Assembly (NCBI RefSeq): GCF_000009705.1
Contig: NC_003272.1
Span: forward strand, 3,960,001-3,992,000
Reading direction: 5' to 3'
DNA: 32,000 bases
Origin: Nostoc sp. PCC 7120 = FACHB-418
Lineage (GTDB): Bacteria; Cyanobacteriota; Cyanobacteriia; Cyanobacteriales; Nostocaceae
Below, piece by piece: positions 2,731-25,043 of this stretch. Position numbers and translations under genes: made by a program. How positions within the stretch are numbered: position 1 is the first letter of the stretch; each line of letters begins with the position of its first letter. Below the pieces are notes generated by a model that made no database searches, had not been told where the DNA came from, and saw nothing but the letters and a program-made list of their open reading frames with translations.

Positions 2731-3303
2731 ATGGATCAAAGTATATTTTTAGATGTTTTAACTAGCTTGCAAAAATTATTTGTAGGTTACATTCCCGCAG
2801 CTATATTCGGCAGTTTCATTGGATATCTTATAGGTATAAATGTTGCTGTATATCAATTGATGCGGCGGATTTTTCAGATCCCTAATAGTATTCCGCCCAT
2901 TGCCATTCTCCCCTTGACACTGGTTATTTTCCAAGAGAGTGAATCAGCTGTAGCGGTGGTAATCTTTATGGCTAGCCTCTGGACGATTATTATTAATACT
3001 GCTGTGGGGATTCAACATTTCCGTAGACAAAATAATAACTTTCGCGCGGTTATCTTTCATACATCTCATGCACTGAAAGTGGGGATTTGGGTAGCATGGT
3101 TTACTGTTATCGCTGTAGAAATGTTACTCGCATCTAAAGGACTTGGTGCTTTGTTGTGGAATAGTTATAAATCAGGTAATAGCAACTACATAATTGAGGG
3201 CATACTCTACATTGGTATTATCGGGTTTTTACTAGATCAGTTTATAGATTACACAGGTTATCTTTTAGCCCAAATGGTAACAGATAGCAAGAAATCTTCC
3301 TGA
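2731..3303 (+). CDS. Short, possibly degenerate ABC-transporter permease-like membrane protein (nitrate/sulfonate/taurine-type)
   Basis: 190-aa ORF with multiple hydrophobic helices. IPPIAILPLTLVIF...NTAVG and ...EMLLASKGLGALLW resemble NitT/TauT-family permeases. It is ~70 aa shorter than usual, the EAA-loop region is not recognisable, and no ATPase or binding-protein gene is adjacent. Confidence 0.5.
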   Translation: MDQSIFLDVLTSLQKLFVGYIPAAIFGSFIGYLIGINVAVYQLMRRIFQIPNSIPPIAILPLTLVIFQESESAVAVVIFMASLWTIIINTAVGIQHFRRQNNNFRAVIFHTSHALKVGIWVAWFTVIAVEMLLASKGLGALLWNSYKSGNSNYIIEGILYIGIIGFLLDQFIDYTGYLLAQMVTDSKKSS

Positions 3304-3306
3304 TCC

Positions 3307-6300
3307 TTACTTTACTTTGCCTCGGAAGCGCACAAAGCCGTAAGACTCGGCTGGATTCCCACTACTAGTTGCAGGGGGTAGGTTGGGTAAGATAAGATTA
3401 CGTGTAATCTCCACTACTAAGGCTCCATTAGTATTGCTACCAGTGTTGTTGCAAACGCTTGGTGTATTAGGATCATTAGCTGGGTAAAAAGTGGCGCGAT
3501 CGCTATCTGCTACATTACTAAAATATACCGTAGGAATAGTAGAACCCACAGCCATAGCAATACCTTGATCTGAACCTGTTAAACCACCATCATTAGGACT
3601 CAAACCATTAAAAGCAGCAGCAAGAAAATCTACATTATTAGGCACTAAATCACACAATTGCACCTTAGTAGCATTATCTTGGCCATTGGAAAGGAAGTAA
3701 ATAGTGTACTCTAACTCATCTCCGAGTTTGACAGTCCCAGCATTAATTAATCCTCGTAAATACCCAACTGGCCATTTAGCATCATTATCATCCGTGTCTC
3801 TCGGTGCAGCTACATAATTAGTAGCTGTCGTAGCCACATTACTCATCCCATCTACAATATCAGTTAAATCTTGGTTATTAACACGAGTAATGCGTTTCAC
3901 CAAAATGAGATTCGGCGTATTGTTATTACCAGTAATATTTGTCTGGTCATCATCAGTATTATTTCCAGGAGTAATATCCCCACCACCATTAACAATAGCA
4001 ATGTTAATTAAAGTAGATGGTGCATTATTAGCCACATCCACTGTTAAGGTAATTGCCGGGTAACTCCCACCTGGATTGAGTACATCGCTGCGGCTACAAG
4101 TTACGGTTTGTCCGGAAATACTACAATTCCAACCCGTACCACTAACTGCCGTGGGAGTTAAACCTGTAGGTAAGTTATCCGTTACGGTAACAGTATTCCC
4201 ATCAGTTGCACCAGCCCCACTAGCATTACTAACAATAAGAGTATAAATTTGCCCTGTATCCCCCTGATTAAAATTACCTGTGTGGGTTTTATTCATACTC
4301 AAATCTGGAGGAGTAATAATATTTGCAATATCGGGGGGACTGGTATTATTTGTATTATCACCATCACCACCACCAGAGACAGTTGCTGTGTTAGTCACAC
4401 TAGTAGCAGTAATGCCAGAATCAATCGTTACATTAATGTTTATATTAGGATAATTCGCACCTGGATTAAGTACATCGCTGCGACTACAAGTTACCGTTTG
4501 TCCTGAAATTGTACAAGTCCAACCATTACCTGTTGCGGCTGTAGGAATAATTCCAGTTGGGAGAATATCTGTAACTGTAACTGGAGTACCATCAGTAACA
4601 TCACCACCAGAATTAGGTACATTAATCACATAAGTACCTGTACTACCTCTGACAAAATCAGTCGGCGTGTGAGTTTTACTAACTGTTAAATCAGGACTGA
4701 CAATATTTAAGAAATTATTAGCCGCATTACTAGGAAAGAATGTCCATTGGTCTAGACCTTTCGTATCGCCAAAAGAACCCGTACAGACTGTGTTAGTATT
4801 ACCTCCACTAGCTTGCCCAAAGGCGCGCTGATTTGTTCTAGTGTCAAAGCCTGTAATTTGATTACTGAACGCAGGTACAGTGGGGCCAACACCGCAAAGA
4901 GGCGCATTGTTATCAATATTAGCTTGTGTTGCTCCTACGTGAACTATTGTGCCATTTTTAGTTCGATACACCCGGTCATCATAAAAACCTGTTGTTGGGC
5001 CAAAACCTGGTAAGTCGGTAGGATATGAAGCTGGAGGGTTGAGTAAAGTGACTGTTGGGCCACCGGAGAAGTTATTTTCTGCATCTAATACCGGAAAATG
5101 ATACTCTCCGGCATTAATTCTAATATTGAACAGATAATTAGTACCAACAGGAAAGAAATTACCAGCATTATTTCTACCATCCCAACTGACATTTTGTGTT
5201 CCTGATGAGTTCATATAACCCCTTAAAACTCGGTTCTGCGGGTTTTTCGGGTCAAAATCCGTGCTACCATCACCTCTGATTACAATTTCATAAGTTCCAG
5301 TGACAGTGCTATTAAAGCTAAAAGTCCCTCCATTGCCAACTTTACTATTGTTGCCGGAAAGATTACCCGTAAAATTAGGATTAGTTACACTGGGAGGAAT
5401 TGGATTAGTGGTAATACCCACACCTTGGAAACTGCCAAAGCGGTCATAACGATTTATAAAAGCTAAAGCGTTAGGATCAAGCAGATTAAAAAATGTGGGA
5501 AACTGCGGACGTGCTAAGGATGCACCACCTTGGATATTAGATACGTTACCGTTAGTACCAACAACGTTACGGTATAGAGTTGAGACACCGTCACTATCAA
5601 AAAAACCGACTTCGTTACCATAAAGAACAAAACCGTTGGGATCTAAACCTCTAATCTCTGTTCTATATCTATAACCGTCTGTAGTGACAGGATAAACATT
5701 TGAATAGACTGGTCTGCCATTACCTCCTGTAAATAATGCTAAATAATAAGAAAATAAACGTCCGGTTGAGTCTGTAGTGGAACTGGTACTACTACGAACA
5801 GTTACATCCCAAGCTGCTACACTACTTCCTTGGCTAGAGTCAAAATTAGTACTACTAGTTAAATTTATCTCTGCTGTTATCCCACCATCACCACTAGCAT
5901 TAAATCCTGCGGGGCCAAAGATAACAACATCATAAATGCCAGTAGAGGGAGCTTGATAGTAACAAGGTGTATATCCGCTAGTATTCCCTGTACCATTAAT
6001 ACTTCTTGGCCCGGCTAATTCCTCGGTTCTACTATTAATTTTTCCTCCGGTTTGAGAAGTACATTGAAAACTTGGTGTACTAGGAAAAGTTTCACTACCT
6101 ACCTGACCTGTGACTAAATTAGGGTTATAAACATAGATATCACCAGTGGTTGTGACATTATTACTAGTGCGAGTGACACCCACAGCACTAGAACCTAGTA
6201 GGATGTATTCACCAGCCTGGGCATAAACTTTTAATAGTGTTCTTCTTGTAATTAAGTTACCTGTCTGTTCTGTCCGCCATTCTAAGTTAGCTCGATATGC

Positions 6301-6462
6301 AGTCCCAGGGGAAGAAGCAGGATATAAATTGCGGCTGCCTTCGGCTTGGACGGGTTGGATACCAATAGCTACAATACCTACACAAAGAGCTGCAATTCTA
6401 CTAAAAGATTTGATATTTTGGATGTTTTTGGATGTTTTCTGATTAGTTGGGCTGCGATTCAT
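3307..6462 (-). CDS. Secreted 1051-aa surface protein: Gly/Asn/Thr/Ser-rich beta-rich N-terminal region, two tandem DUF11 repeats and a C-terminal DUF11-like domain
   Basis: ATG start. Signal-peptide-like N-terminus (...IAALCVGIVAIGIQPVQA/EG). Two repeats of ~129 aa each carry the DUF11 signature (TVTDILPTGIIPT...WTCTISGQTVTCSRSDVLNPG and TVTDNLPTGLTPT...WNCSISGQTVTCSRSDVLNPG). The C-terminal module reads LGDELEYTIYF...DLVPNNVDF. It is last in a five-gene co-directional cluster. Confidence 0.85.
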   Translation of the reverse strand: MNRSPTNQKTSKNIQNIKSFSRIAALCVGIVAIGIQPVQAEGSRNLYPASSPGTAYRANLEWRTEQTGNLITRRTLLKVYAQAGEYILLGSSAVGVTRTSNNVTTTGDIYVYNPNLVTGQVGSETFPSTPSFQCTSQTGGKINSRTEELAGPRSINGTGNTSGYTPCYYQAPSTGIYDVVIFGPAGFNASGDGGITAEINLTSSTNFDSSQGSSVAAWDVTVRSSTSSTTDSTGRLFSYYLALFTGGNGRPVYSNVYPVTTDGYRYRTEIRGLDPNGFVLYGNEVGFFDSDGVSTLYRNVVGTNGNVSNIQGGASLARPQFPTFFNLLDPNALAFINRYDRFGSFQGVGITTNPIPPSVTNPNFTGNLSGNNSKVGNGGTFSFNSTVTGTYEIVIRGDGSTDFDPKNPQNRVLRGYMNSSGTQNVSWDGRNNAGNFFPVGTNYLFNIRINAGEYHFPVLDAENNFSGGPTVTLLNPPASYPTDLPGFGPTTGFYDDRVYRTKNGTIVHVGATQANIDNNAPLCGVGPTVPAFSNQITGFDTRTNQRAFGQASGGNTNTVCTGSFGDTKGLDQWTFFPSNAANNFLNIVSPDLTVSKTHTPTDFVRGSTGTYVINVPNSGGDVTDGTPVTVTDILPTGIIPTAATGNGWTCTISGQTVTCSRSDVLNPGANYPNININVTIDSGITATSVTNTATVSGGGDGDNTNNTSPPDIANIITPPDLSMNKTHTGNFNQGDTGQIYTLIVSNASGAGATDGNTVTVTDNLPTGLTPTAVSGTGWNCSISGQTVTCSRSDVLNPGGSYPAITLTVDVANNAPSTLINIAIVNGGGDITPGNNTDDDQTNITGNNNTPNLILVKRITRVNNQDLTDIVDGMSNVATTATNYVAAPRDTDDNDAKWPVGYLRGLINAGTVKLGDELEYTIYFLSNGQDNATKVQLCDLVPNNVDFLAAAFNGLSPNDGGLTGSDQGIAMAVGSTIPTVYFSNVADSDRATFYPANDPNTPSVCNNTGSNTNGALVVEITRNLILPNLPPATSSGNPAESYGFVRFRGKVK
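3925..4695 (-). repeat. Tandem duplication of a ~387-nt DUF11 repeat unit inside the 1051-aa gene
   Basis: The units begin at PDLTVSKTH (about 4695) and PDLSMNKTH (about 4308). The 17-aa core ISGQTVTCSRSDVLNPG is identical in both. It is encoded near 4082-4135 and 4463-4516 with only a few silent or near-silent differences. Confidence 0.8.
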
Positions 6463-6529
6463 AATTTGATAGCTTTTAATTGTTAATTGCTGTTTGTTAT
6501 AACCCAGATAAAGATATAATTTTGCTGTA

Positions 6530-9500
6530 TTATTTTTTGGCTGCTGTTACGGGTTTTTGTAAGCCAAAGCCATCAAATAATTCGTTAAGTTTTAGCGTCA
6601 AACCCAAATATAATCCCCCCGCAGAACGAGTACCGGAAAAATCTTGGTCATCGATCTTACCAAAGGCATAACCAGCCGAAAGCCGCAGATTAGGACTCAA
6701 ATAATACCCAGCCTCCACGACAAAACCCGTCTCAGTATAGTTGGCTTGACCAATCACCCGTGCCTCACCAACTAAATCCCAACTATATCCCAGGCGATAA
6801 GTAGCACGTAATTGTCCCAAGTTGACCGTACTAGTACCTACCAGGTCATTTGCTAAATAAGAAGTGCTATTACGCAGTGCATATTTACCATAAAATTCCC
6901 ATTGCCAATTGGGTGCATAAATGGCTTCCATTGCAAAGGTATGGTCTTGAGAACCTGTACCACTACCTAAGAGAATTGTGTCAGGAATAGTCGCCGGATT
7001 TTGGCGATACTCATAACGCAACAAGGCGTTAAATTTATCGTTGTTGGGGTCGCGGTAAGCTAAACCCAGCTTCAAATTGGCTGTATCTCCTAGTCCTGAG
7101 AGTTTTTGATTGGAAGAGTTGGCTTGTTGATATCTCACCAAAGCTGTGAGTGCAGGCGAAATTTTCCCTAAGGCGGCGGCTGTAATTACCGTATTAGAAC
7201 CACCGGAAGAAGTCCGATGTTCATAACGGGCGCTGGCTTGGAATTGAGGATTATCAGAGTATTCCAAACCTATGCTGTAACTATCTCCCCCATTAAACCC
7301 AATAGAAGAAGCACTTTGACCAACAGCAAAGGGTTGGGCAAATTGTTGACCTGCGGCGGTACGGTTGAAGAAGCTGCCAAAGACGTGTTCATAAGCCAAA
7401 TTCAACCGCAAACCAGGAGCAATCATCCAACGGTTATTTAACCCAATAGCACCTTGAGTAGTCAGTTCGTTAGCCCCACCGATAATTGAGTAACGACCAG
7501 AGAGGGTAGTATCAGAACCGAGTTTATGCTCACCGTTAACACTTAAGCTGGTGATAGAGTTACTGGAAGACTGACCGCTACTGTAAAACTGTTGAGCCAG
7601 ACTGATATTCACACCAGGAACAACGGCCCAATTGAGACCGAAGATAGTGCGGTCTGGGTAGACAGTATCTTTTTGGGAAGATAGGGTGAGTTCGTTTTGG
7701 GCTTGGAATGTCAGGTTGTTTGTCAGAGGATATGTTAAACGGGAACGCAATTGATCCGATGTACTTTCTAGACCATTTGTCGCTATCCTGTCTTCCCGAT
7801 TACGATGAATCCAATCCACATCTACAGTGGCTTTCCCAAAACGTTGTTGAATCCCCGCCGAGATGGTTGTTAGGGAATTATCGACTTGGCTACCTGGAAT
7901 TGCTTGTGAACGTGGAGAAAATAATTCTTCAAATGTATCTAGTGGTTGAGGTGCAATACCAAAGTTGTCTTCGTGGTCGTACTGCACACGAATATTTGTG
8001 GTTTGGGAAAGTTGCCCTGTTAACTGTCCGCCATAGCGAGTTTGACCAGGGACAAAACTAATGGTGGCGTTATTGGCAAAACCTGTATCAGCATAACGAT
8101 AATAAGCCCGACCTTGTAAACCTCGAAAAATCTCTCCTTGAGCTTCTAGACGGTAGGCTTCGCCACGTACCCGCCCCAGAATGTCAGAATCATTACGAGA
8201 ATGGGCATATTCGGCAATTAACTGGCTCTGAGAACCGAGAGAAATCTTGGCATCTGCACCATAGAGTTCAAAACCACGTAGTCCTTGATTCTCTCTGACA
8301 TAGGTTGCGGCTATCCAACTCTCTTGATTGAGAGTGCGGGAAAAGTTGTATTGCAAACGACCTGCATAGATATTGCTATCAGAGTTGTTGCTGTCATATT
8401 GATAGCTGACAACAATCCGCCGCACCAGAACCTGTCCTGTTGCATCAATATCAGTACGCAGAACTGGTTCACGGAAAATTACAGTACCGCGATCGTAGTC
8501 TATTTCGTAATCTGGGCCACGACTTAGTTGTTTACGTTCCAGTACTGTACCAGGACGATTGAGTTCTTCTAATTCAATAAAGACGTTTTCACTACCAGGA
8601 ATTACTAACCGCCGGGAAAGGAAGTAATAACCACTGGTTCCATCAGGTGCAACGGTGTCTCGTTGAAAGGCTTCTAAATTATTGCCATAGAAGCCTGTAA
8701 TTTGTAAATTCCCGAAGTTGTAGTTGGCTTTAAAGCCGTGGAGTTGGCGGGTAACGGCGGTGAATTGCTGAGAAGACCGAGCAAATTCTTCTGTGTTGTA
8801 GTCGCCCCACATAGCATAATCAGGTGCAGTACCCGGAATACCTGTAGAACGTTCAAAACGCAGATATACACTGTCAATGGAGGGTGTAACTACGTCTACT
8901 TTAGAGCTATCGCCATAAACAGGATAGTTTTGTTCGCTAGATTGGTATGACCTAAACAGACGATTGTCGCAGTTACAATCTTCATTGAGACTACGAGAAC
9001 TATTGTATGCACCAGTAAACAACCACTCACCGATCGCACCCGTGGCAAATATGGCTGAGTTAAACTCTAATTGGGTACCATTATCTCTATTAGGGGGCAG
9101 GAAATCACGAAAACTGCTGTAATAATTTGTCCCTCTTGCTCCCAACCGCACATCTATCACCCCAGTCACCAAACTAGGACGCAGTGCTGTCGCAAATTCG
9201 ATTTGGGTAAAAGCTTCTAAATCGTTAGCTACAGCTCGAATCCTGGCTGTTTGGGCTTGGAGAGGCGATCGCCACACCGCAGTAAATTCTCCCTTTTTCG
9301 CCTCTATCTGAAACCCTGGTTGTTCTGGTTTCAGGTCAGTTCCTACCAACTCTCCTACCGTGGGGATTAAGGTAATAACGGCATCTTGATTTGAACGATT
9401 GCCATTTTCATCAAGGAGTTGACCGCGAATTGTCGCTGTTGAACGTCCATCAGCCGGGACACGAGACTCAACGGTTTCTACAGTTAGTTTTTTGGCTGTT

Positions 9501-10399
9501 CCCCTCACCACTACCCGCAGGGTTACAGGTGCTTCTGTTCCTCCTACTATTTGTGCAGCTAGAGTATTTTCCCCTTCTTTGAGACCAACTCCATACCATG
9601 TCTGCGTTACTAAGTTAGTATCAGCATCAGTTTCGGTACGTCCCAACAAAGAAGAGTCTACCAATACCCCATTTACCCGCAACTCTACTTGACTACCAGA
9701 TGGGAATTGCACTGCTACGGTAGTTGCCGACACATCAATCACACCATCAGGCGTGGGAGTCAAGATTTTCAGTACTGTTGTAGTTGTTGGAGTATTTTCC
9801 CTCCGTCCATTACCCTCATCTGTTTCTGCAACTAATTTGCGTAAACTTCTAGGTATGGGTGTATCTGTTGCTGGTTGAAAAGTGGGAATTTCCTTTGGAG
9901 TGGTTGGCGCGGGTTCTGCAAGCCTACTTAGACCTTTGGGTAATGGGATATCATCTGCTGGTTGGAATGGTGAGATAGCATTTGCAGAAGGTTGTAAATC
10001 TGTTGGTGCGTTCGATGTAGGTGTTTCCTCTTGTACTTCGTTGGTTTGAGTTGTTTGATCTAATCCTCTAACCTCCTTCTTTAGTAGGGCAGGGGAAATA
10101 TTCCAAGCCTCTCTCCTTGTAGGGAAGAGGTCGGGAGAGGGGTTTTCTATTTCATCTTGGGTTAGCTGAGTGGTTAGTTCAGTTGTGCGACCTAATCCCC
10201 TCATACCTGCCAGAGAAGGGGGAATATTCAAAGCCTCTCTCCTCATAGGGGAGATGTCGGGAGAGGGGTTTTCTAAATCAGGGGAAAATCCAGGATTTTC
10301 CTGAGCTTCAGCGTGAACTATTGCTGGATACAAGACAAAGCTTAAAGCCCCAGCCATTGCTCCCATCAACCGCAAATTGAGAATACTTACAGGTTTCAT
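6530..10399 (-). CDS. 1289-aa outer-membrane protein: signal peptide, Pro-rich repeat linker, Ig-like (Big_1/invasin-type) domains and a very large C-terminal beta-barrel
   Basis: ATG start. The signal peptide is ...GALSFVLYPAIVHA/EA. Big_1-like segments include VELRVNGVLVD...GENTLAAQIVGG and VESRVPADGRSTATIRGQLLDENGNRSNQDAVITL...TARIRAV. The following ~850 aa show alternating hydrophobic/polar strands rich in Y, G, N, S and R, and end in GGLYLGLTLKLNELF close to the C-terminus. The start overlaps the stop of the upstream gene (ATGA). Confidence 0.85.
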   Translation of the reverse strand: MKPVSILNLRLMGAMAGALSFVLYPAIVHAEAQENPGFSPDLENPSPDISPMRREALNIPPSLAGMRGLGRTTELTTQLTQDEIENPSPDLFPTRREAWNISPALLKKEVRGLDQTTQTNEVQEETPTSNAPTDLQPSANAISPFQPADDIPLPKGLSRLAEPAPTTPKEIPTFQPATDTPIPRSLRKLVAETDEGNGRRENTPTTTTVLKILTPTPDGVIDVSATTVAVQFPSGSQVELRVNGVLVDSSLLGRTETDADTNLVTQTWYGVGLKEGENTLAAQIVGGTEAPVTLRVVVRGTAKKLTVETVESRVPADGRSTATIRGQLLDENGNRSNQDAVITLIPTVGELVGTDLKPEQPGFQIEAKKGEFTAVWRSPLQAQTARIRAVANDLEAFTQIEFATALRPSLVTGVIDVRLGARGTNYYSSFRDFLPPNRDNGTQLEFNSAIFATGAIGEWLFTGAYNSSRSLNEDCNCDNRLFRSYQSSEQNYPVYGDSSKVDVVTPSIDSVYLRFERSTGIPGTAPDYAMWGDYNTEEFARSSQQFTAVTRQLHGFKANYNFGNLQITGFYGNNLEAFQRDTVAPDGTSGYYFLSRRLVIPGSENVFIELEELNRPGTVLERKQLSRGPDYEIDYDRGTVIFREPVLRTDIDATGQVLVRRIVVSYQYDSNNSDSNIYAGRLQYNFSRTLNQESWIAATYVRENQGLRGFELYGADAKISLGSQSQLIAEYAHSRNDSDILGRVRGEAYRLEAQGEIFRGLQGRAYYRYADTGFANNATISFVPGQTRYGGQLTGQLSQTTNIRVQYDHEDNFGIAPQPLDTFEELFSPRSQAIPGSQVDNSLTTISAGIQQRFGKATVDVDWIHRNREDRIATNGLESTSDQLRSRLTYPLTNNLTFQAQNELTLSSQKDTVYPDRTIFGLNWAVVPGVNISLAQQFYSSGQSSSNSITSLSVNGEHKLGSDTTLSGRYSIIGGANELTTQGAIGLNNRWMIAPGLRLNLAYEHVFGSFFNRTAAGQQFAQPFAVGQSASSIGFNGGDSYSIGLEYSDNPQFQASARYEHRTSSGGSNTVITAAALGKISPALTALVRYQQANSSNQKLSGLGDTANLKLGLAYRDPNNDKFNALLRYEYRQNPATIPDTILLGSGTGSQDHTFAMEAIYAPNWQWEFYGKYALRNSTSYLANDLVGTSTVNLGQLRATYRLGYSWDLVGEARVIGQANYTETGFVVEAGYYLSPNLRLSAGYAFGKIDDQDFSGTRSAGGLYLGLTLKLNELFDGFGLQKPVTAAKK
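10022..10273 (-). repeat. In-frame tandem 126-nt (42-aa) repeat with a GC-rich hairpin-capable core
   Basis: Unit 1 is ENPSPDISPMRREALNIPPSLAGMRGLGRTTELTTQLTQDEI. Unit 2 is ENPSPDLFPTRREAWNISPALLKKEVRGLDQTTQTNEVQEET. The plus-strand cores at 10092-10148 and 10218-10274 are nearly identical (gcctctctcc..gg.ag..gtcgggagaggggttttct) and contain CCTCTC/GAGAGG inverted repeats. Confidence 0.85.
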
Positions 10400-11925
10400 G
10401 GCTTGACTACCTCCTCTGGGGTGGGAGTAACCGCAAAGTTCATCCTTACCAAACCACCAGGTTCGAGGCGTACTAGACGGGATTGGCTATTGCGTTCGCG
10501 GAATTTCTCGTTGGGAGCTAGTTTGTAACCAGGGACACTACTTAGGTCTAATACTCCCGTGTGACTTCCGGGTAAAACGTTGGCGAGGGAGAATAAACCG
10601 TTGGGATCTGTGGTGATGCGGTTACCGTCTTGGAGGAAAATTACAGCATTGGCAATTCCCGCTTCTCCCGGTTGTTGTTCACCGTCAAAGTTTTTGTCAT
10701 CAAAGACCCGACCAATAATAGTGCCGCAATCAGAAACTATACCTGGACGAATCTTCAGCTGGTGCGTTGCTGGGCCATCCTTAATCCTAAATCTGTTATC
10801 AGCCCGTTCAGCATTCACGATCGCACTATTACGACCACTACCACGCAAGGAATCAGTCGTGAGTTGAGCCGCATAAGCAATGTTAATGACTTTACCAACA
10901 GGAACATTGGCGTTAGGGCGAAATGTAATAGTATTACCATTACTAACGGGAGTGACAGTTACCGACTCCCCATCAATTTCACCCCGCACAGACTTAGGAA
11001 TAAAGTTAAAACCTAAAGGTAAAGTATCCGTAATTTCCACATTGCTTAAAGCCGCATCAGATAAATTTCGTACCGACAAACGATAGATCACAGTATCTCC
11101 AGGTTCAGCCGCAGCGCGATCGCCTGTTTTAATCAGCTGTGCTTGAGTTGCCTGACACATATTTGTGGTGAACTCAAAAGCCAATAAATCTAGTCCCACA
11201 ACTTCGGCATTAGGAACTAAAACTACGGTGCTTTCTACCCTAGATTCACCACTCAAACCGATTGGTTGACCATCTAAAGAAGTCGCAATATAGCGGACAA
11301 CACTGTTATTAATTGCGCCTGTACTATTGAGAATTTCAATTTTAATCCGCCGTTGCCGATAAACAGAATTAGCTGGAGGATTAACTACAAAAATATAGGT
11401 TCTACCCGGTTCGATTTGACCACGATTAGGGTCGAGAAGAAAATTATAGACACCAGCCGGATTATTAGTAATGAAATAAGGATTACTGTTCTCAGAATTT
11501 GGTCTTAACCCACCAGGAACATTGTTATTAGGAATATCAGGAACTTCTGTAGGGGTGAGAGAAACTAACTGCCCTAATTCTGTGCCAGTGGGGTCACTGG
11601 GATTAGGTTCATATACGCTAACAGAAAAACCAGTATAGTCTGGTAAGAGCGTTCCAGCACAACCTAAAATCCTGCCTAATGGATCAACCAAAGGACTAGG
11701 ATTGACATTAGTTTTAATAGTTAATCCTTGATATCGATTATTACTAGCTCTATCTTGATAAGTATATGTAGCTTGGTTTGTGATATTGACGACGGGAGTA
11801 TTTTGCGCGTTCACTGGTGTTGGTATGGTAGTATGCAATAAGCTGCCGAAAAGAAGAGTGGCAGTTAACCTTTGATGCCAGTTACTGCGGAAGTAAATCG
11901 ATGTTGGTTTACAAGGACGAATCAC
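10396..11925 (-). CDS. Secreted 509-aa protein with a DUF11 domain and an SdrD-B/Cna-B-like domain
   Basis: There is no in-frame ATG near the N-terminus. The GTG at 11925 is preceded by GAGAGG 9 nt upstream. Signal-like N-terminus ...TIPTPVNA/QN. The DUF11 motif is PGDTVIYRLSVRNLSDAALSNVEITDTLPLGFNFIP. The Cna-B/SdrD-like motif is GTIIGRVFDDKNFDGEQQPGEAGIANAVIFLQDGNRITTDPNGLFSL. Confidence 0.8.
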   Translation of the reverse strand: MIRPCKPTSIYFRSNWHQRLTATLLFGSLLHTTIPTPVNAQNTPVVNITNQATYTYQDRASNNRYQGLTIKTNVNPSPLVDPLGRILGCAGTLLPDYTGFSVSVYEPNPSDPTGTELGQLVSLTPTEVPDIPNNNVPGGLRPNSENSNPYFITNNPAGVYNFLLDPNRGQIEPGRTYIFVVNPPANSVYRQRRIKIEILNSTGAINNSVVRYIATSLDGQPIGLSGESRVESTVVLVPNAEVVGLDLLAFEFTTNMCQATQAQLIKTGDRAAAEPGDTVIYRLSVRNLSDAALSNVEITDTLPLGFNFIPKSVRGEIDGESVTVTPVSNGNTITFRPNANVPVGKVINIAYAAQLTTDSLRGSGRNSAIVNAERADNRFRIKDGPATHQLKIRPGIVSDCGTIIGRVFDDKNFDGEQQPGEAGIANAVIFLQDGNRITTDPNGLFSLANVLPGSHTGVLDLSSVPGYKLAPNEKFRERNSQSRLVRLEPGGLVRMNFAVTPTPEEVVKP

Positions 11926-12086
11926 TGAATTTTTCCTCTCAGAAGCGCCCTGTTATTTATGAATAAAGGCATTTGATTGATACAAATATGAGCCGTCGTT
12001 ATCGAAACTTGGAACAACGGCTAACTATTGATTAGATGTTTTCTAGTAGTGCTAATTCGTAATTCGCAGTTAAGAATTAGTATTAA

Positions 12087-12629
12087 TTAACGCACCTGGG
12101 TTAAATAGGTCGCTTTGACTGTAGTTTTAGCTGCTACTAATGGCAGTTGCAAACGAATATTGGTATAAGCTGTAGCTGGTGCTGGTTTAATTTCGACCTT
12201 ACCCCCAGGGAGGGTAACTTTAACTGTGGGATTCTCAACAAAACTGCGCCCGCCGTCAATGCTGTAAGTAATTTTGGCTGCTTTATTGGCAATATCAACT
12301 GATTTCAGCACATATACCATGCCTTTAGGGATTGGTTGATTGAGAGTCAAATTTTTGATTGAGCGATCGCTTTTATTTTCGCCATTTAAGGTATAACGCA
12401 ACACATCCCCAGGCTTGACCACAGCTTGACCTTGTAATGCTTGCCAAGCAACCTTCTGTTTCCCCTGCTGATCCTTGCTAATAACCTGTTTTTCCGCCCC
12501 TAAGCGCAATTGCAATTGTGGTTGATTTTGAATGCTTTGAGCAACTACACTTCCTGGGATGTGATTGATAAATGGTGCGGTAGCAATCAGCGCAAATGCA
12601 CCCACACCAGCGATAAGAACACCCTTCAT
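12087..12629 (-). CDS. Small secreted single-domain DUF11-like protein (180 aa from ATG 12629)
   Basis: The ORF track opens at TTG 12644, but I prefer ATG 12629 (MKGVLIAGVGAFALIATAPF...VVAQ/S signal peptide). The DUF11-like core is PGDVLRYTLNGENKSDRSIKNLTLNQPIPKGMVYV. Confidence 0.75.
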   Translation of the reverse strand: MKGVLIAGVGAFALIATAPFINHIPGSVVAQSIQNQPQLQLRLGAEKQVISKDQQGKQKVAWQALQGQAVVKPGDVLRYTLNGENKSDRSIKNLTLNQPIPKGMVYVLKSVDIANKAAKITYSIDGGRSFVENPTVKVTLPGGKVEIKPAPATAYTNIRLQLPLVAAKTTVKATYLTQVR

Positions 12630-12671
12630 GACAAATAACCCCAAAAAACTATTAGATATATGATTCCCATG

Positions 12672-12703
12672 TTTGCAGTCAGGACTTAAGTCCTGACTGC
12701 AAA
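12672..12703 (-). promoter_or_regulatory. Perfect 32-nt palindrome (14-16 bp stem-loop) between the 859-aa and 180-aa genes
   Basis: The sequence tttgcagtcaggactt|aagtcctgactgcaaa is its own reverse complement. It lies 13 nt after the stop of the 859-aa gene and ~43 nt before ATG 12629. No U-tract follows it immediately on the transcribed strand. Confidence 0.7.
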
Positions 12704-12715
12704 CTGTGCAGAACT

Positions 12716-15295
12716 TTAGTTAACCTTGCGTCGGAAAGTAAACGTTCTTTGTTGACCTGGTGCTACTTGACCAGTCACACTGTTGACATACCGAGTCACA
12801 TCAGTGTTGACGGTAGTTCCAGTCTGATCACTACCTGAGGTAGTAGCAGGATTACCATTGAAGAATTGGATAGTACCATTGGGGTCAGTAGCTGAACCAA
12901 TAATGTTGCTGGTATCAATCTGACCATTACTATCATTGTCTAACGCCCAGTTATTAGGCGCAGTTACCCCATTTTCATTGATGACAACATTGCTGGCGTT
13001 CAGGATGATGTTACCGTTACCAGATTGTGGCTCAGAGATGTTGCTGTATTGAATCTGGTACTCAATAATGTTACCAGGTACAGGACTCTTGTCAGTATCG
13101 CTAAGTATGCCATCAGCCCCGGCTACAGGTTGCCCATTTTGATCTAAGATTCTGGAAAGTTTCCGCAGTTTCAGGAAGCCAGTATATACACGGTTAATTG
13201 TAGTATTTTGTACAGCTTCTCCATTTAAGCCAGCAGTCCCATCATCCACAAAGGCTGTCACAGGAACGGGGAAACCTTTATCAATATCTGTAGATAATTG
13301 AGTACCATCAGGTAAGTCAATTTCCACACCGTAGTTGATGTTTGTACCTGGTGCTACACTAGGAATAGTGATGTATTCACTTGTGAGATTAATGGTGGAT
13401 TGATCACCTGTTGTAGCCGGATTGCGATCTAGATCAAAAAGGAACTCAGATCCAGTCCAGACATAGGATCTAGATTCAGAAGCATAAGTAATCGTTACTA
13501 AAGTACCTACAGGTAAATCAGCATTGTTTCCAGCAGGTGTATTACTTGCTGGTGGGATGGGTACTAAAGAGTAGTCACTAGCAGCGCTACCGCTATTTCT
13601 GATAGTGTTGGTAAAGGCTACTGGTTGTGGATTTAGTGTAGAGTTTGGTTGTGTGCCGAAAGGTACTAAAGAAGATTTGTTAGTGAAGTCATCGTTTGTA
13701 CCACCAGATGGGCCAATGGCATTAGGAGCATTGACTGGGCCATTGAGAATGGCTGAAGCTACAGGAACTTCTAGCGTGAAGATGTTGGCTTCACCACCGT
13801 CGCCTACACCAGTATTATCATTATTGCCGTCAACTCCTGTTTCTGGGGCAGCTGGATTATCAACGAAACCATCATCAACACTGGTATCAGGTAAACTATC
13901 AGGCACACCATCATTATTGAGATCTGTAAGAGCAGGTAGATTTGGTGTCATATTCCCAAATTGACCATTGAAGTTACTGGGGTTTTGGTCTCCAGACTCA
14001 TCATAGACAGGGAAGTTATTACCAGGGGTTTGACCAAACAACTGAGCAATGTTGGCAACATTTAAAGATGTGCCGGCAAAGCTGGATTCGACTCTTAAGT
14101 TAATAGTAAAACCATTAACTGTTTGGTTGGGTGCAACAGATGTAACTATAGCTGTGTTGTTGATAAAACCAACACGGGTGACTGTACTCAAGTCACCTGG
14201 TGGTGTTGTTGTCCACGCCGCAGCATTAGCATCTGTCCCAATTGGTGATATCGTATATACTGCTGTCCATCCGTTGGGAGCTGTTACTGATACTAAATCT
14301 GTGCCAGTGGGAATGGCATCGGAAACTAAGATGTGCGGGACATTAGATGTTCCATTAAGATTGATACCCCTACCTTCCAAGGCTGCTGGAGTGATACCCT
14401 GTCCTGTGGGGTCATTACCTTCAACTCGCAAACTCAGACCATAACTAAGTGTGTCATCTGTAATGGAATTAGTTGTTCCCGCATTGCTGTAAGCAGTACG
14501 TGTCTTGAGAACTGTGGCTAAAGAGTAGGTTTTAACGCCTCCACCTACTTGAACATCAATAGATGTATCACTAGCTTCTCTAGTGCCGTTAACAGGAGCG
14601 CCATCAACTTCATCCGTCACACTACCATTGAGGTTATCTACAGTATAAACGTCACCACCATCAGGACTACGCAAGACGTTTTGAGCATTGGCTGGGGTAT
14701 TACCTAACCTAACCGTAATGATGTCACCGCTTTGAGCGCCTGGCTGTACAGTAACAGGGACTCTAACTAATACCTGACCGCCGACAGCAATGTTGGGAAC
14801 AATGGCCTCAGAACCAGTGATGTTAACCCAAGTTACGCCGTTGTCAGTACTATATTGCAGATTATTGAGTGTACCGTTGTTTGGTAATGTCCCAGAAACT
14901 GTTGCAGGCCCTGTTGTTGTTGCCAAATTAGGTATACGGAACTGGGTGGGGTCGTTACCGACGTTGGTGATGGTGTAATTGAAGATTAAGAGATCATTTA
15001 TTTCAATCGTACCGCCGTCATCGTCCACTAAACCTGTGTAGTCTACTGTAATACCTGCAACTTCTGCCACTGTTACTGTGACAGTGTTGGAAGTTGTATT
15101 CAGGGGTACGTTGGGATTGTTGGGGTCTTCGTAAGTAGCAGTTGCTTCGTTGGTGATAGATTGACCCGCTTTAGTTCCTTCTGCTAGTGCAGGCGTAGTA
15201 AATGGGAAAATGCCGCTTGCTAAAAATGCTGTGGCGACTAAAGCACGGTAAATTCGAGACTTCCCAGTCTTGTGAGCTTTTTGGTGGAAATTCAT
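12716..15295 (-). CDS. Secreted 859-aa Thr/Asn/Gly-rich beta-rich surface protein with DUF11-like modules; first gene of the cluster
   Basis: ATG start. Signal peptide ...ASGIFPFTTPALA/EG. DUF11-like segments include LLIFNYTITNVGNDPTQFRIPNL and PGNIIEYQIQYSNISE...RTFTFRRKVN. The composition is low in Cys and charged residues and rich in T, N, G, S and V, as is typical for surface fibres or adhesins. Confidence 0.85.
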   Translation of the reverse strand: MNFHQKAHKTGKSRIYRALVATAFLASGIFPFTTPALAEGTKAGQSITNEATATYEDPNNPNVPLNTTSNTVTVTVAEVAGITVDYTGLVDDDGGTIEINDLLIFNYTITNVGNDPTQFRIPNLATTTGPATVSGTLPNNGTLNNLQYSTDNGVTWVNITGSEAIVPNIAVGGQVLVRVPVTVQPGAQSGDIITVRLGNTPANAQNVLRSPDGGDVYTVDNLNGSVTDEVDGAPVNGTREASDTSIDVQVGGGVKTYSLATVLKTRTAYSNAGTTNSITDDTLSYGLSLRVEGNDPTGQGITPAALEGRGINLNGTSNVPHILVSDAIPTGTDLVSVTAPNGWTAVYTISPIGTDANAAAWTTTPPGDLSTVTRVGFINNTAIVTSVAPNQTVNGFTINLRVESSFAGTSLNVANIAQLFGQTPGNNFPVYDESGDQNPSNFNGQFGNMTPNLPALTDLNNDGVPDSLPDTSVDDGFVDNPAAPETGVDGNNDNTGVGDGGEANIFTLEVPVASAILNGPVNAPNAIGPSGGTNDDFTNKSSLVPFGTQPNSTLNPQPVAFTNTIRNSGSAASDYSLVPIPPASNTPAGNNADLPVGTLVTITYASESRSYVWTGSEFLFDLDRNPATTGDQSTINLTSEYITIPSVAPGTNINYGVEIDLPDGTQLSTDIDKGFPVPVTAFVDDGTAGLNGEAVQNTTINRVYTGFLKLRKLSRILDQNGQPVAGADGILSDTDKSPVPGNIIEYQIQYSNISEPQSGNGNIILNASNVVINENGVTAPNNWALDNDSNGQIDTSNIIGSATDPNGTIQFFNGNPATTSGSDQTGTTVNTDVTRYVNSVTGQVAPGQQRTFTFRRKVN

Positions 15296-15828
15296 TTGGT
15301 GTAGTTACTTGGTTAGAGTGCTGCCTGGTAGATTTCGAGAAAAAGTGGTGTAAAGTATGCCTGAGATAGAGAACCTATTGGTGTAATTTGTGTCGCACGT
15401 TTCCCTGAAACATCGAACTAATCTCAAAGTAATAAAGATTACTAAAATCCTTCTAGTCTAGTTCCTATAAGAAAGTGTGTTTACAGATGTAAACGGAAGT
15501 CTTCTGTAGGGAGTTAACTGTAACTAGTTCTACTTAAATTTAGTTCTATTGACTGAATGAGAGTTGACTGAAAGGCACAGAGCGATCGCTCAATAGTAAA
15601 AACTTAAGACAATCACCTCAGGTTTTAAAACAGTTAAACTACTGGTATTAAATAATATAAATTTCTAAAAGCCAGTTTTTTTACTTAAGTAATTACGTAA
15701 GGATATTCGTGTATTTATAACCAATAAAGTGGTCTTATTTAGTAGCATTTTTGACTCAAAAAATATAGTAGCGGCTTTTTTGGGAACATAAGTCCAAGGA
15801 AATACCCGACAAAAATTATCGGGTATGT

Positions 15829-15857
15829 TTGACTAGTGTTTTTACCCGTGTTACTAT
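15829..15857 (+). promoter_or_regulatory. Sigma70-type promoter candidate for the thrC-like gene
   Basis: TTGACT (15829-15834), an exact 17-nt spacer, then TACTAT (15852-15857). The predicted start near 15864-15866 gives a ~30-nt leader to ATG 15897 and argues against the TTG 15867 start. Confidence 0.45.
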
Positions 15858-15896
15858 CAACGACAGTTGACGGACAAACAGGGAAAGCTAGTTATT

Positions 15897-17201
15897 ATGA
15901 CGCAGGCAACATCTACACCCACCCAAACGACCAATGCCACCCTTTCAGCGTTGAAGTGTAAGGAATGTGGCGCAGAATATGAACTGAAAGCTACTCATGT
16001 GTGTGAGTATTGTTTTGGCCCGTTGGAAGTGAAGTATGACTACAATGCCTTACGTCTCTCTGTTACCCGCGAAAAAATTCAAGCTGGGCCAAACTCAATT
16101 TGGCGTTATCGCCCTTTTCTGCCTGTCACAACTGACAATGTAATTGATGTGGGAACAGGTATGACTCCCCTGGTGCGTTCCCATCGTCTTGCCCGTCGCC
16201 TGGGTCTAAACAAGCTTTACATTAAAAATGATGCAGTGAATATGCCCACCCTCAGCTTTAAGGATCGGGTGGTATCCGTCGCCCTGTCTCGCGCTAGAGA
16301 GTTGGGATTCACCACAGTTTCTTGCGCTAGCACTGGTAACTTAGCAAATTCTACAGCAGCGATCGCCGCCCATGCCGGTTTAGATTGCTGTGTGTTCATC
16401 CCCGCAGATTTAGAAGCTGGCAAAATTCTGGGTAGCTTAATCTACAGTCCTACCCTCATGGCGGTGAAAGGCAACTATGATCAAGTCAATCGCCTTTGTT
16501 CGGAAGTAGCTAATACACACGGTTGGGGCTTTGTCAATATTAACTTACGCCCCTACTATTCCGAAGGTTCCAAGACTTTGGGCTTTGAAGTTGCCGAACA
16601 ACTAGGCTGGGAACTACCAGATCATATAGTTGCACCTTTGGCTTCTGGTTCACTGTTCACCAAAATCTATAAAGGCTTCCAGGAATTCGTGGAAGTTGGT
16701 TTGGTGGAAGGGAAGAAAGTCCGTTTCAGTGGCGCACAGGCGGAAGGTTGTTCACCCATCGCCCAAGCCTTTAAAGAAGACAGAGACTTTATTAAACCAG
16801 TGAAACCGAATACAATTGCCAAATCAATTGCGATCGGTAATCCAGCAGATGGTGTTTATGCTGTTGATATTGCCAAGAAAACTGGCGGTAATATTGAATC
16901 AGTGAATGATGCAGAAATTATCGAAGGTATCAAGCTACTGGCAGAAACCGAAGGCATCTTTACAGAAACAGCTGGTGGTACAACTGTTGCTGTGCTGAAA
17001 AAATTGGTAGAAGCTGGCAAAATTGATCCAGACGAAACCACCGTGGTTTACATCACTGGCAATGGTTTGAAAACCCAAGAAGCCGTACAAGGCTACGTTG
17101 GCGAACCTTTGACAATTGATGCCAAATTAGATAGTTTTGAGCGTGCTTTAGAGCGTTCACGTACCCTCGACCGCTTGGAATGGCAACAAGTCCTCGTTTA
17201 G
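15897..17201 (+). CDS. Threonine synthase family PLP enzyme with an N-terminal Zn-ribbon (ThrC or a MetM-like paralogue)
   Basis: The ORF track opens at TTG 15867; I use ATG 15897 (MTQATSTP...). It has a CxxC...CxxC ribbon (CKECGAEYELKATHVCEYC) and a PLP-lysine motif (PTLSFKDRVVS). STGNLANS and GNGLK motifs, typical of ThrC-fold enzymes, are also present. Confidence 0.85.
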   Translation: MTQATSTPTQTTNATLSALKCKECGAEYELKATHVCEYCFGPLEVKYDYNALRLSVTREKIQAGPNSIWRYRPFLPVTTDNVIDVGTGMTPLVRSHRLARRLGLNKLYIKNDAVNMPTLSFKDRVVSVALSRARELGFTTVSCASTGNLANSTAAIAAHAGLDCCVFIPADLEAGKILGSLIYSPTLMAVKGNYDQVNRLCSEVANTHGWGFVNINLRPYYSEGSKTLGFEVAEQLGWELPDHIVAPLASGSLFTKIYKGFQEFVEVGLVEGKKVRFSGAQAEGCSPIAQAFKEDRDFIKPVKPNTIAKSIAIGNPADGVYAVDIAKKTGGNIESVNDAEIIEGIKLLAETEGIFTETAGGTTVAVLKKLVEAGKIDPDETTVVYITGNGLKTQEAVQGYVGEPLTIDAKLDSFERALERSRTLDRLEWQQVLV

Positions 17202-22488: not shown

Positions 22489-23322
22489 ATGACAGACCTA
22501 ATTGACCCATCTCAAATTATTGTTAGACCAAGACCAACTTTACTTTCAACTTTTGAACTGTTAGTTAAACCAATTGCTCCTGTGGGTTCTGGCCCTAATG
22601 TCGTAGCGCGTACAGTTATCCAAGGTTACTTTTTAACAATTGCCAACACCAGTAACTCAGATATCAAAGTACGGTTGCAATTTACTGCCACAACACCAGA
22701 ATTAGATTTAACTAATACTGTCACTATCACCGATGTTCAAGGTGTGAATGACTTTTCTGACCTCACCCCCATTGTTGGTGATCCTAAAAGATTTATCTTT
22801 AATTTAAGTATTGGTGCTAACGACACAGCTTTATTTACCCTATTGCCTGATGTCAGCAAGCCAGAGGTCATCAAAGCTAACTCTCTGGAAGTGCGGGGCT
22901 ATGTAGAAATCGCTTTAACATCTCCATCTAGTTCTGTGAGGTTGCTGCTGACACCAGAACATCGTGGTACATTTGTACCACAGAGCTTTGATACTGTTCG
23001 CGCTCCTGATTTTGACCAACTAGTGTATGCTTTGCCTACATCCACCGGACAAAGTGAGTTTACGCTGACAGGGCCAGCCAAACCCAACAAGGAACTCAAG
23101 TTAGAAATTAAAGAGATTGAGAAACTAGTTGAAAACAAACTGGCAGAAATATTACCACTAACACCCCAAACACAAATACCAAATGACCTACAGCGAGTTA
23201 TTGGTCTGATGGCTCAACGTTTGGATGAGTTAGAACAGCGCACTGTTAGTAACGGCAATGGACGCGCTTTCATCCAAGTAGAGGAACGCCCCAGCGTTGG
23301 TCACCACGTAGTTAATCAATAG
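22489..23322 (+). CDS. Hypothetical 277-aa protein: beta-rich N-terminal ~190 aa plus a Lys/Glu-rich helical tail; first gene of the ATP-grasp operon
   Basis: ATG start and no signal peptide. Beta-sandwich-like alternation is visible (VIQGYFLTIANTSNSDIKVRLQFTAT, EVRGYVEIALTS). The tail reads KELKLEIKEIEKLVENKLAEIL...LDELEQR. It ends 11 nt before the next gene. Confidence 0.7.
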   Translation: MTDLIDPSQIIVRPRPTLLSTFELLVKPIAPVGSGPNVVARTVIQGYFLTIANTSNSDIKVRLQFTATTPELDLTNTVTITDVQGVNDFSDLTPIVGDPKRFIFNLSIGANDTALFTLLPDVSKPEVIKANSLEVRGYVEIALTSPSSSVRLLLTPEHRGTFVPQSFDTVRAPDFDQLVYALPTSTGQSEFTLTGPAKPNKELKLEIKEIEKLVENKLAEILPLTPQTQIPNDLQRVIGLMAQRLDELEQRTVSNGNGRAFIQVEERPSVGHHVVNQ

Positions 23323-23333
23323 GGGCAGTATTC

Positions 23334-25021: not shown

Positions 25022-25043
25022 AAACCATCCAGATGTAACCCCG

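Follow-up and report, generated by a model that had tools for sequence, protein, structure and literature searches.

A conserved gene cluster in Nostoc sp. PCC 7120 encoding a predicted giant outer-membrane barrel and CLIPPER-type partner proteins: a candidate platform for surface adhesins

We report that five genes, all3292 to all3288, located in a 32,000-nt stretch of contig NC_003272.1 of Nostoc sp. PCC 7120 (Nostoc/Anabaena; the whole stretch is referred to as the window), form a conserved cluster in which a predicted giant outer-membrane barrel protein, All3289, is encoded together with four partner proteins with signal-peptide-like N-termini. Based on sequence comparisons and structural modelling we lean towards the view that the cluster encodes a dedicated outer-membrane export and anchoring platform for adhesin or fibre subunits of the CLIPPER type (the domain formerly named DUF11), usher-like in its layout though not by homology, with All3289 being a candidate for either export or anchoring. 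The initial annotation of this DNA, made from the sequence alone, had proposed that the barrel is dedicated to the co-encoded DUF11-type proteins. This is supported by the gene order (72 of 72 cyanobacterial loci), by a short overlap between the barrel gene and the gene preceding it (67/76), by a neighbouring CLIPPER gene in all six unfused relatives looked up (6/6), and by fusion of partner domains to the barrel in approximately 76 of 120 relatives. The association is real and far beyond chance.

In diderm bacteria, the described secretion systems do not explain how Sec-dependent CLIPPER/DUF11 fibrillar adhesins cross the outer membrane and become attached, and the present locus is a specific candidate for this role. 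The barrel family, which is commonly mislabelled as "TonB-dependent receptor", is solidly new at the family level, with no curated model, no solved relative and one mention in a supplementary table, while we infer that it is also new at the level of mechanism. If the predicted number of approximately 38-40 strands is true, All3289 would exceed SprA (36 strands); the 30-strand SlpA is counted among the largest single-chain barrels observed (PMC9388160). Moreover, the system is present in a genetically tractable model, Anabaena PCC 7120, it could in filamentous cyanobacteria bear on adhesion, formation of biofilms and mats, and symbiosis, and its isopeptide domains are of interest for protein engineering.

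Results

Organisation of the all3292-all3288 cluster

The products of the five open reading frames (ORFs) match BAB74991-BAB74987 of Nostoc sp. PCC 7120 exactly. The 1289-amino acid (aa) protein is all3289 (PMC9705863), and the names of the other four genes follow from consecutive numbering. The genes and the upstream region are (window coordinates):

12716..15295, minus strand: all3292, 859 aa; signal-peptide-like N-terminus and a DUF7925 domain at residues 259-442 (BAB74991)
12087..12629, minus strand: all3291, 180 aa from ATG (185 aa from an upstream TTG at 12644); small single-domain CLIPPER-like subunit with a signal peptide
10396..11925, minus strand: all3290, 509 aa, GTG start; signal peptide, CLIPPER/DUF11 domain (~264-360) and SdrD_B/CnaB-like domain (~406-476)
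6530..10399, minus strand: all3289, 1289 aa; signal peptide followed by a repeat-containing Pro-rich linker, two immunoglobulin-like (Ig) domains and a predicted barrel of ~38-40 strands
3307..6462, minus strand: all3288, 1051 aa; signal peptide, N-terminal part of ~550 aa, CLIPPER repeats and a C-terminal DUF11-like domain
15296..15866, no strand assigned: non-coding region of 571 nt that separates all3292 from a divergent gene for a threonine-synthase-like protein and presumably holds the promoter of the cluster

The sizes and common strand given for the five ORFs in the initial annotation agree with these data, as do its junctions (86, 161, -4 and 67 nt in the order all3292 to all3288), and the upstream non-coding region is 571 nt where 570 bp had been stated. 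The signal-peptide-like N-termini proposed for all five proteins were likewise recognised by eye as a charged/basic-hydrophobic-AxA pattern. A GGAGG sequence lies directly before the all3289 ATG, within the end of all3290, which fits translational coupling of the two genes. A FurC site was predicted by FIMO 129 nt upstream of all3292 (a computational prediction, PMC10406281). Scans of the window for promoters and terminators gave nothing above the shuffled expectation, no Rfam family or tRNA was identified in the window, DNA-level tandem repeats of note were absent (including in the All3289 linker), and a PHROGs search returned nothing relevant.

Conservation and linkage in cyanobacteria

A scan of GTDB species genomes with an alignment narrower than the cross-phylum one, in which PDGTSG[YAF]Y was chosen as search pattern, identified at least 577 encoding stretches and returned only Nostocales and Chroococcidiopsidales. 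For the cyanobacterial comparison 80 loci (Nostocales and Aliterella) were retrieved, 72 of which had enough upstream DNA. The order and strand All3292-All3291-All3290-barrel were kept in all 72, giving the synteny across Nostocales that had been named beforehand as a check. The 4-nt overlap between the All3290-like gene and the barrel gene was kept in 67 of 76 loci. A downstream All3288-like gene was present in 64 of 73, with a median coverage of 0.24, i.e. usually only the C-terminal ~200 residues. Median identities were 73% for the barrel, 74% for All3290, 68% for All3291, 53% for All3292 and 55% for the short conserved part of All3288.

Relatives outside the cyanobacteria

In the protein library the barrel region matched 1910 clusters at 50% identity (E <= 0.001), 309 of which had E <= 1e-30. 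Relatives outside the cyanobacteria share 21-40% identity and come, according to the source records, from Eremiobacterota, Ignavibacteriae, Marinimicrobia, Oligosphaeraceae, Polarisedimenticolaceae and many Alpha-, Beta- and Gammaproteobacteria. Among the 120 best relatives of one distant protein, about 76 have CLIPPER, CLIPPER_2, SdrD_B, CarboxypepD_reg or DUF7925 domains fused N-terminally to the barrel; P0361, P0363 and P0416 are barrel proteins with a fused DUF7925. In the six unfused relatives looked up (from Eremiobacterota, Marinimicrobia, Alpha- and Betaproteobacteria and other metagenome-derived contigs), a CLIPPER/SdrD_B gene encoding 1211 to >4111 aa is located immediately upstream in every case; it overlaps the start of the barrel gene in L004, L087, L088 and L089, and is separated from it by 4 nt in L003 and by 29 nt in L005. 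Partner proteins, whether fused to the barrel or encoded next to it, can be as long as 2600 to >4100 aa, and cadherin/Big_9 arrays and GEVED modules are present in some of them. These proteins are too long for the periplasm, and such lengths are typical of fibrillar adhesins.

Two layouts recur. The minimal one, seen in Betaproteobacteria and related contigs, consists of a giant adhesin-like CLIPPER protein, the barrel and an OmpA-domain protein. In the multi-subunit one, represented in Nostocales, Marinimicrobia, Thalassovita and L089 (L005, L006 and L089 among the loci), an All3292-like protein and a small subunit of 160-190 aa are present in addition. The cyanobacterial All3291 profile matched small proteins of the Marinimicrobia cluster (E 1e-38) and of the Thalassovita cluster (E 1e-31) over their full length, and by these profile matches the small subunit is orthologous across three phyla. 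Taken together, these data suggest that the pairing of a barrel with such partners is a means, common among bacteria and so far uncharacterised, by which surface adhesins are exported or anchored.

With respect to the OmpA component, a gene encoding an OmpA-domain protein of 359-377 aa directly follows the barrel gene in L004, L087 and L088 (with a 4-nt overlap in L088). The Nostoc cluster lacks such a third component, and in other relatives the OmpA domain is fused to the C-terminus of the barrel.

Predicted structure and topology of All3289

All3289 can be divided into the following parts:

9785..10309, minus strand: residues 31-205, Pro-rich linker of low complexity, in which two pairs of diverged peptide repeats can be read from the translation
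9191..9775, minus strand: residues ~209-403, two Ig-like beta-sandwich domains, Invasin_D3/Big_1-like (AlphaFold2, predicted local distance difference test score (pLDDT) ~75-93)
6578..9172, minus strand: residues ~410-1274, predicted outer-membrane barrel of ~38-40 antiparallel strands, ending ...YLGLTLKLNELF followed by a 16-aa tail
8432..8671, minus strand: residues ~577-656, conserved beta insert of ~75-80 residues in a periplasmic-side turn (AlphaFold2)

The Pro-rich linker noted initially is thus evident in the translation; its repeats, ENPSPD..RREA.NI.P.. and I.PFQPA.D.P.P..L..L, are poorly conserved in orthologues (the consensus of the Nostocales alignment A1 is mostly "x"). The Big_1-like Ig domains that had been claimed gave an Invasin_D3 match of 16.9 bits in All3289, under the Pfam cut-off, and it is the stronger matches in orthologues together with the AlphaFold2 model that back them.

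A first AlphaFold2 run based on a Nostocales-only multiple sequence alignment (MSA) modelled both Ig domains, left residues 402-680 unmodelled (pLDDT 52.8), and was replaced by a second run with a 97-sequence cross-phylum MSA covering residues 300-1289, for which the mean pLDDT was 78.8 and the predicted TM-score (pTM) 0.73. According to DSSP, this model contains an Ig domain followed by a long antiparallel series of strands of 7-20 residues, with six to eight strands before the insert and 32 after it. A C-terminal barrel, as first suggested for this protein, is therefore supported by the AlphaFold2 model and is predicted to have approximately 38-40 strands. Counting from the C-terminus, long loops (7-30 residues) all fall on one face and turns of <=5 residues on the other. 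By this loop parity, the usual pattern in the outer membrane, the C-terminus and the insert are predicted to be periplasmic, and with a 40-strand parse so is the N-terminus of the barrel.

Domain fusions among relatives point in the same direction: OmpA domains are found N-terminal to the Ig domains in P0379 and after the last barrel strand in P0404, P0382, P0156 and P0162 (P0156 and P0162 are close relatives, probably cyanobacterial), and three SLH repeats precede the Ig domains in P0217. With such domains on either side, and given the loop parity, both barrel termini and the Ig domains are predicted to be periplasmic. For All3289 itself the Ig domains are hence more likely periplasmic than surface-exposed.

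The insert consists of short strands (model positions 278-352) between barrel strands and carries the motifs PDGTSGxY, SE.V.I... and DYEID..G.LLFR.P, which are among the best conserved across phyla (alignment A2). In the model it is a candidate plug or gate. As a separate observation, the only two cysteines of All3289 are in a CNC motif at residues 475-477, of which Cys, Asn and Cys are invariant in the Nostocales alignment (C276, N277 and C278). The motif is part of a 44-residue loop of low confidence yet conserved sequence, which also holds YPVYGDSS and would, by loop parity, be on the extracellular or lumen side.

The C-terminal ~880 residues of All3289 belong to no Pfam or NCBIfam family, the only match being a weak one to Porin_4 (32.6 bits, residues 765-970). 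Models for plugs, TonB receptors, ushers, autotransporters, intimin, LptD and SprA did not match All3289, and a sequence search of the PDB gave no related chain. With Foldseek, the best matches in the PDB were the largest barrels known (SprA, SlpA, MtrB, LptD, TonB-dependent receptors and ushers), and the similarity was generic (TM 0.1-0.3).

Partner proteins and isopeptide domains

DUF11 was recently renamed CLIPPER, and the crystal structure 9IFR revealed a CnaA-like fold with an intramolecular Lys-Asn isopeptide; in characterised contexts these domains are extracellular stalk domains (PMC12617251). The same survey introduced DUF7925 as a new CnaA-like isopeptide family, and its published example Q8YS00, with a predicted isopeptide formed by K264/D326/N415, is All3292 itself (PMC12617251).

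According to the initial annotation four of the proteins have DUF11 signatures. This holds for three. All3288 matches PF01345 over three stretches (67.8 bits; Pfam cut-off 24.6), All3290 matches PF01345 (42 bits, same cut-off) and TIGR01451 (54.2 bits; cut-off 24), and All3291 has one TIGR01451 repeat (27.1 bits; same cut-off). All3292 did not match the DUF11 models; it matches DUF7925 (PF25546) with 232 bits over model positions 1-185 of 185, and the K264/D326/N415 triad is present in its sequence. Correspondingly, the four motif strings quoted as DUF11 signatures come from three proteins, not four. By these domain assignments the cluster is better described as encoding three CLIPPER proteins and one related CnaA-like isopeptide protein. 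By eye, patterns of the type K..TVTD..NTA can be recognised in All3290 and in the repeats of All3288, while All3291 lacks Asp at the equivalent LNQPIP position. The Cna-B/SdrD-like domain proposed for the 509-aa protein gave a match to SdrD_B of 27.2 bits, below the Pfam cut-off, and is backed by matches in orthologues. In addition, All3290 matches the model for the RrgB-type isopeptide fimbrial domain (TIGR04226, 34 bits). Searches of PDB sequences with All3292, All3290, All3289, All3288 and the All3288 CLIPPER repeats gave nothing usable, including no match to 9IFR, and pairwise BLASTP among the partners gave no significant similarity.

All3290 corresponds to the module that is fused to the barrel in other phyla, residues 261-499 aligning to the upstream gene or fused segment (L003-L006), and All3291 is a candidate repeating or adaptor subunit. 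All3288 is composite: its N-terminal ~550 aa are without family match and are a candidate variable head, two Cys-containing CLIPPER repeats are present at ~591-840 and a TIGR01451 match at 909-948, and the protein ends with

3310..3915, minus strand: All3288 residues 850-1051; within the downstream protein, conservation across Nostocales is limited to this part, which ends ...YGFVRFRGKVK

Most tblastn matches of All3288 are restricted to residues ~830-1051, and the C-terminal motif is also present in a 2090-aa protein of Chlorogloeopsis. From this pattern of conservation residues 850-1051 are a candidate docking module. Variation of the downstream partner outside its C-terminal module is what one would expect if an exposed head were mounted on a conserved dock. 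In Trichormus variabilis ATCC 29413 the All3288 orthologue is fragmented (entries of 230, 832 and 845 aa, compared with 1053 aa in other T. variabilis strains), which suggests that it is disrupted or rearranged.

Two further sequence features of the partners were noted. First, the partners except those of the All3290 type share a C-terminal beta-strand motif, G....x-F-x-[FV]-x-V-[KNR] (All3292, All3291 and All3288; L001, L005 and L006), with examples such as TFTFRRKVN, KATYLTQVR, GFVRFRGKVK, LEFDVKVK and VSFQVVIN, the first being the terminal strand of All3292 (...TFTFRRKVN); it could be a mere domain end or a shared recognition element. Second, a motif following the signal peptide, ITNEATATYED...SNTVTVTV, is common to All3292, All3290 and the Marinimicrobia and Thalassovita partners, and the sequence type of All3292 residues 31-97 is repeated internally at 535-697. 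We considered whether the stretch ..I.N.A.A.Y.D....SN.V...V provides an N-terminal donor strand, as in usher systems, or a SpyTag-like strand. This idea was unsupported and was rejected, since the stretch begins a domain type that recurs inside All3292 (31-97 vs 535-697).

Discussion

Proposed mechanism

In the export and anchoring platform that we favour, all five products would cross the inner membrane via Sec, and All3289 would insert into the outer membrane as a ~38-40-strand barrel, its Ig domains and both barrel termini lying in the periplasm. The small beta domain emerging from a periplasmic turn would act as plug or gate and, together with the Ig domains, as docking site. All3290, translationally coupled to the barrel, would dock to it or thread through it as base or stalk; in many other bacteria its equivalent is the N-terminal part of the same polypeptide. 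A wide lumen, on the scale of that of SprA, would let folded beta-sandwich domains reach the surface, where All3291, All3292 and the strain-variable All3288 would build up a fibre or adhesin on this base. Gene linkage, fusions, domain content, the predicted barrel and the periplasmic placement of its termini are results of the analysis; export through the lumen, this order of assembly and the surface exposure of the partners are the parts of the model that we infer. In the five proteins and in their neighbours in the window, models for ushers, chaperones, ABC transporters with membrane fusion proteins (ABC/MFP), TpsB, plug/TonB receptors, autotransporters and intimin gave no match, which also confirms the initial observation that chaperone, ABC/MFP and TpsB genes are not seen. 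That the window contains no other secretion component was counted in favour of the proposed platform.

Several points weigh against it. None of All3288-All3292 is listed in the supplementary tables of the Anabaena exoproteome study, which is weak evidence because a cell-bound fibre would not be shed and expression may be conditional. In some relatives an SLH (P0217) or OmpA domain (the upstream proteins of L005 and L089) is situated between the CLIPPER region and the barrel, and with a peptidoglycan-binding domain in this position the chain would have to re-pass the lumen or stay periplasmic. Furthermore, neither an energy source nor a chaperone for export is evident, the localisation of partners and barrel is predicted from sequence and model, and barrel closure, like the placement of the insert with respect to the lumen, is presumed from a model read through DSSP and pLDDT.

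A larger claim, which we hold tentatively and place a little short of an even chance, is that the family stands for a novel pathway of secretion and assembly at the outer membrane, phylogenetically widespread and in effect an unnumbered type of secretion system. Here, a giant barrel with periplasmic Ig domains and an usher-like gate would export folded, isopeptide-locked CLIPPER subunits that are kept as a covalently toughened surface fibre or adhesin, without parts of chaperone, sortase, type I, type V or type IX secretion systems. If true, the single-polypeptide fusions of Proteobacteria would be "giant-barrel autotransporters".

Alternative explanations

The alternative that survives best, albeit unlikely in our judgement, is a periplasmic scaffold or tether between outer membrane and cell wall, where the barrel anchors and the CLIPPER, SdrD_B and Ig domains form a rigid strut to peptidoglycan in a SlpA/OmpM- or OmpA-like manner, the partners staying periplasmic. 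The peptidoglycan-binding modules of relatives (OmpA in P0379, P0404, P0382, P0156 and P0162; three SLH in P0217), the stand-alone OmpA genes that directly follow the barrel gene in L004, L087 and L088, SlpA among the top Foldseek matches, the periplasmic Ig domains deduced from loop parity and fusions, and the absence of the proteins from the exoproteome tables would all fit. However, partners of 2600 to >4100 aa with cadherin, Big_9 and GEVED modules cannot fit in the periplasm, All3289 and the Nostoc partners have no SLH or OmpA domain, neither a 38-40-strand barrel nor a strain-variable partner is needed for tethering, and SLH-porin tethers already exist in cyanobacteria (PMC9388160).

Somewhat more doubtful still is a barrel-and-plug complex, in which All3290 or its fused equivalent resides permanently in the barrel (cf. 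LptE-LptD and MtrA-MtrB) as one fixed surface module and the other three proteins are independent members of a shared regulon. The tightest coupling, and the only universal one, is indeed that of the All3290-type module with the barrel, by overlap or by fusion; MtrB and LptD are among the structural matches and betaproteobacterial versions have one partner only. Independence of the remaining proteins is, on the other hand, difficult to reconcile with the invariant order All3292-All3291-All3290-barrel in 72/72 loci, with the co-occurrence of the small subunit and the All3292-like protein with the barrel in Marinimicrobia, Thalassovita and L089, and with the DUF7925-barrel fusions P0361, P0363 and P0416.

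Finally, an assignment of All3289 to the TonB-dependent receptors or porins, with a role in nutrient uptake, or to the OmpA-like proteins, the neighbours being unrelated, is very improbable: many database records carry the name "TonB-dependent receptor", there is the weak Porin_4 match, TonB-dependent receptors are among the Foldseek matches and an earlier review assigned All3289 as OmpA-like (PMC9705863), but there is no match to Plug, TonB_dep_Rec or NCBIfam models, the strands number ~38-40 and not 22, TM-scores to TonB-dependent receptors are 0.14-0.29, All3289 has no OmpA domain and the OmpA label is rejected by PMC9705863 itself, and the conserved synteny and fusions contradict unrelated neighbours.

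Other features of the window

Downstream of the cluster, a 190-aa ORF at 2731-3303 (plus strand) has only a partial BPD_transp_1 match (profile 1-80 of 184), and 4 nt separate its end from the stop of the convergent all3288. The ORF appears to be a fragment of an ABC permease, truncated or orphaned, and has no partner ABC genes nearby. On the other side, the threonine-synthase-like PALP ORF at 15867-17201 (plus strand; 444 aa from TTG) has an N-terminal match to phage NinF (25-residue model, E 1.8e-7, residues 30-54), which may be a small Cys-rich or zinc-ribbon-like extension or reflect an over-extended start. Further along, four packed same-strand ORFs (277, 235, 328 and 460 aa) at 22489-26426 (plus strand), the third being an ATP-grasp protein of the RimK/D-Ala-D-Ala-ligase type and the others without Pfam match, may form a small uncharacterised peptide-ligation or peptide-modification operon, and two adjacent genes at 27372-28868 and 29088-29846 (both minus strand) encode pentapeptide-repeat proteins of 498 and 252 aa.

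Comparison with known systems

The initial annotation had stated that the architecture does not fit described systems, and this is borne out, as the locus matches none of the secretion and pilus-assembly pathways compared. Its term "undescribed" applies in part: literature searches on DUF11 with usher or pilus, on type 12 and type 13 secretion systems (T12SS/T13SS) and on 38-, 40- or 42-stranded barrels gave no functional study, while the structure of DUF11/CLIPPER has been solved (9IFR, PMC12617251) and barrels from Deinococcus have been tabulated (PMC9388160).

The likeness to the FimD/PapC ushers lies in the layout. In both cases, by prediction for the Nostoc proteins, the genes for an outer-membrane barrel and for beta-sandwich subunits exported by Sec occur together, the barrel is flanked on the periplasmic side by beta-sandwich domains, and one of its periplasmic turns holds a small beta domain (the usher plug); folded subunits pass the usher pore, the operons combine a variable adhesin, a small repeating subunit and an adaptor, and ushers are in the Foldseek list. 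In contrast, there is no match to PF00577, PapC_N/C or a PapD-like chaperone, the strand numbers differ (24 vs ~38-40; TM 0.19-0.29), and the Nostoc subunits are complete CnaA/CnaB-type domains with predicted isopeptides whereas usher subunits are incomplete Ig folds.

SprA of the type IX secretion system (T9SS), the top Foldseek match (E 7.7e-10), has 36 strands, a lumen that fits folded proteins, and Sec-dependent beta-sandwich adhesins as cargo. The TM-scores are however 0.10-0.17 with no sequence relation or model match, PorV, PorU and GldKLMN are not in the window, All3289-type barrels occur in phyla without T9SS, and a conserved C-terminal signal in the cargo is here only a candidate.

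Among type V systems, the fused relatives have the type Va order (N-terminal adhesin-like region and C-terminal barrel), the substrate gene of unfused relatives adjoins the transporter gene (cf. TpsA/TpsB), and Big_1/Invasin_D3 domains occur as in intimin and invasin. The All3289 barrel is, though, approximately three times larger than those of type V (12-16 strands), models for Autotransporter, IAT_beta, POTRA and ShlB do not match, and in relatives peptidoglycan-binding domains may separate "passenger" and barrel. All3289 has neither the 12-strand barrel of a classical autotransporter nor the 16-strand Omp85-type barrel with POTRA of TpsB. Compared with the inverse autotransporters intimin and invasin, in which a 12-strand IAT_beta barrel is followed by Big_1 domains, the order is reversed (Ig domains, then ~38-40 strands), as had been pointed out initially; no IAT_beta match was obtained.

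In SlpA/OmpM proteins, too, the barrel is large (30 strands in SlpA) and is preceded by N-terminal domains in the periplasm, and SLH is found in a distant All3289 relative (only P0217) and OmpA in others. All3289 lacks SLH, coiled coil and OmpA, the TM-score is ~0.2, and SlpA has no CLIPPER partners. LptD and MtrB, likewise among the Foldseek matches to All3289, have 26 strands each. The closest description is that of three Deinococcus radiodurans proteins tabulated with predicted 38-strand barrels and N-terminal invasin-D3 Ig domains (PMC9388160, SI Table S3); both the Ig-then-giant-barrel architecture and the strand count agree, the likeness being by description only, and the table assigns no function or partners (PMC9388160).

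Lastly, the partner proteins resemble Gram-positive sortase pili and CLIPPER adhesins in having CnaA-like (CLIPPER, DUF7925) and CnaB-like (SdrD_B) domains with predicted Lys-Asp/Glu-Asn triads, and All3290 matches the RrgB model. Unlike in those systems the host is diderm and there is no sortase or LPXTG, and the anchor would be an outer-membrane barrel instead of peptidoglycan.

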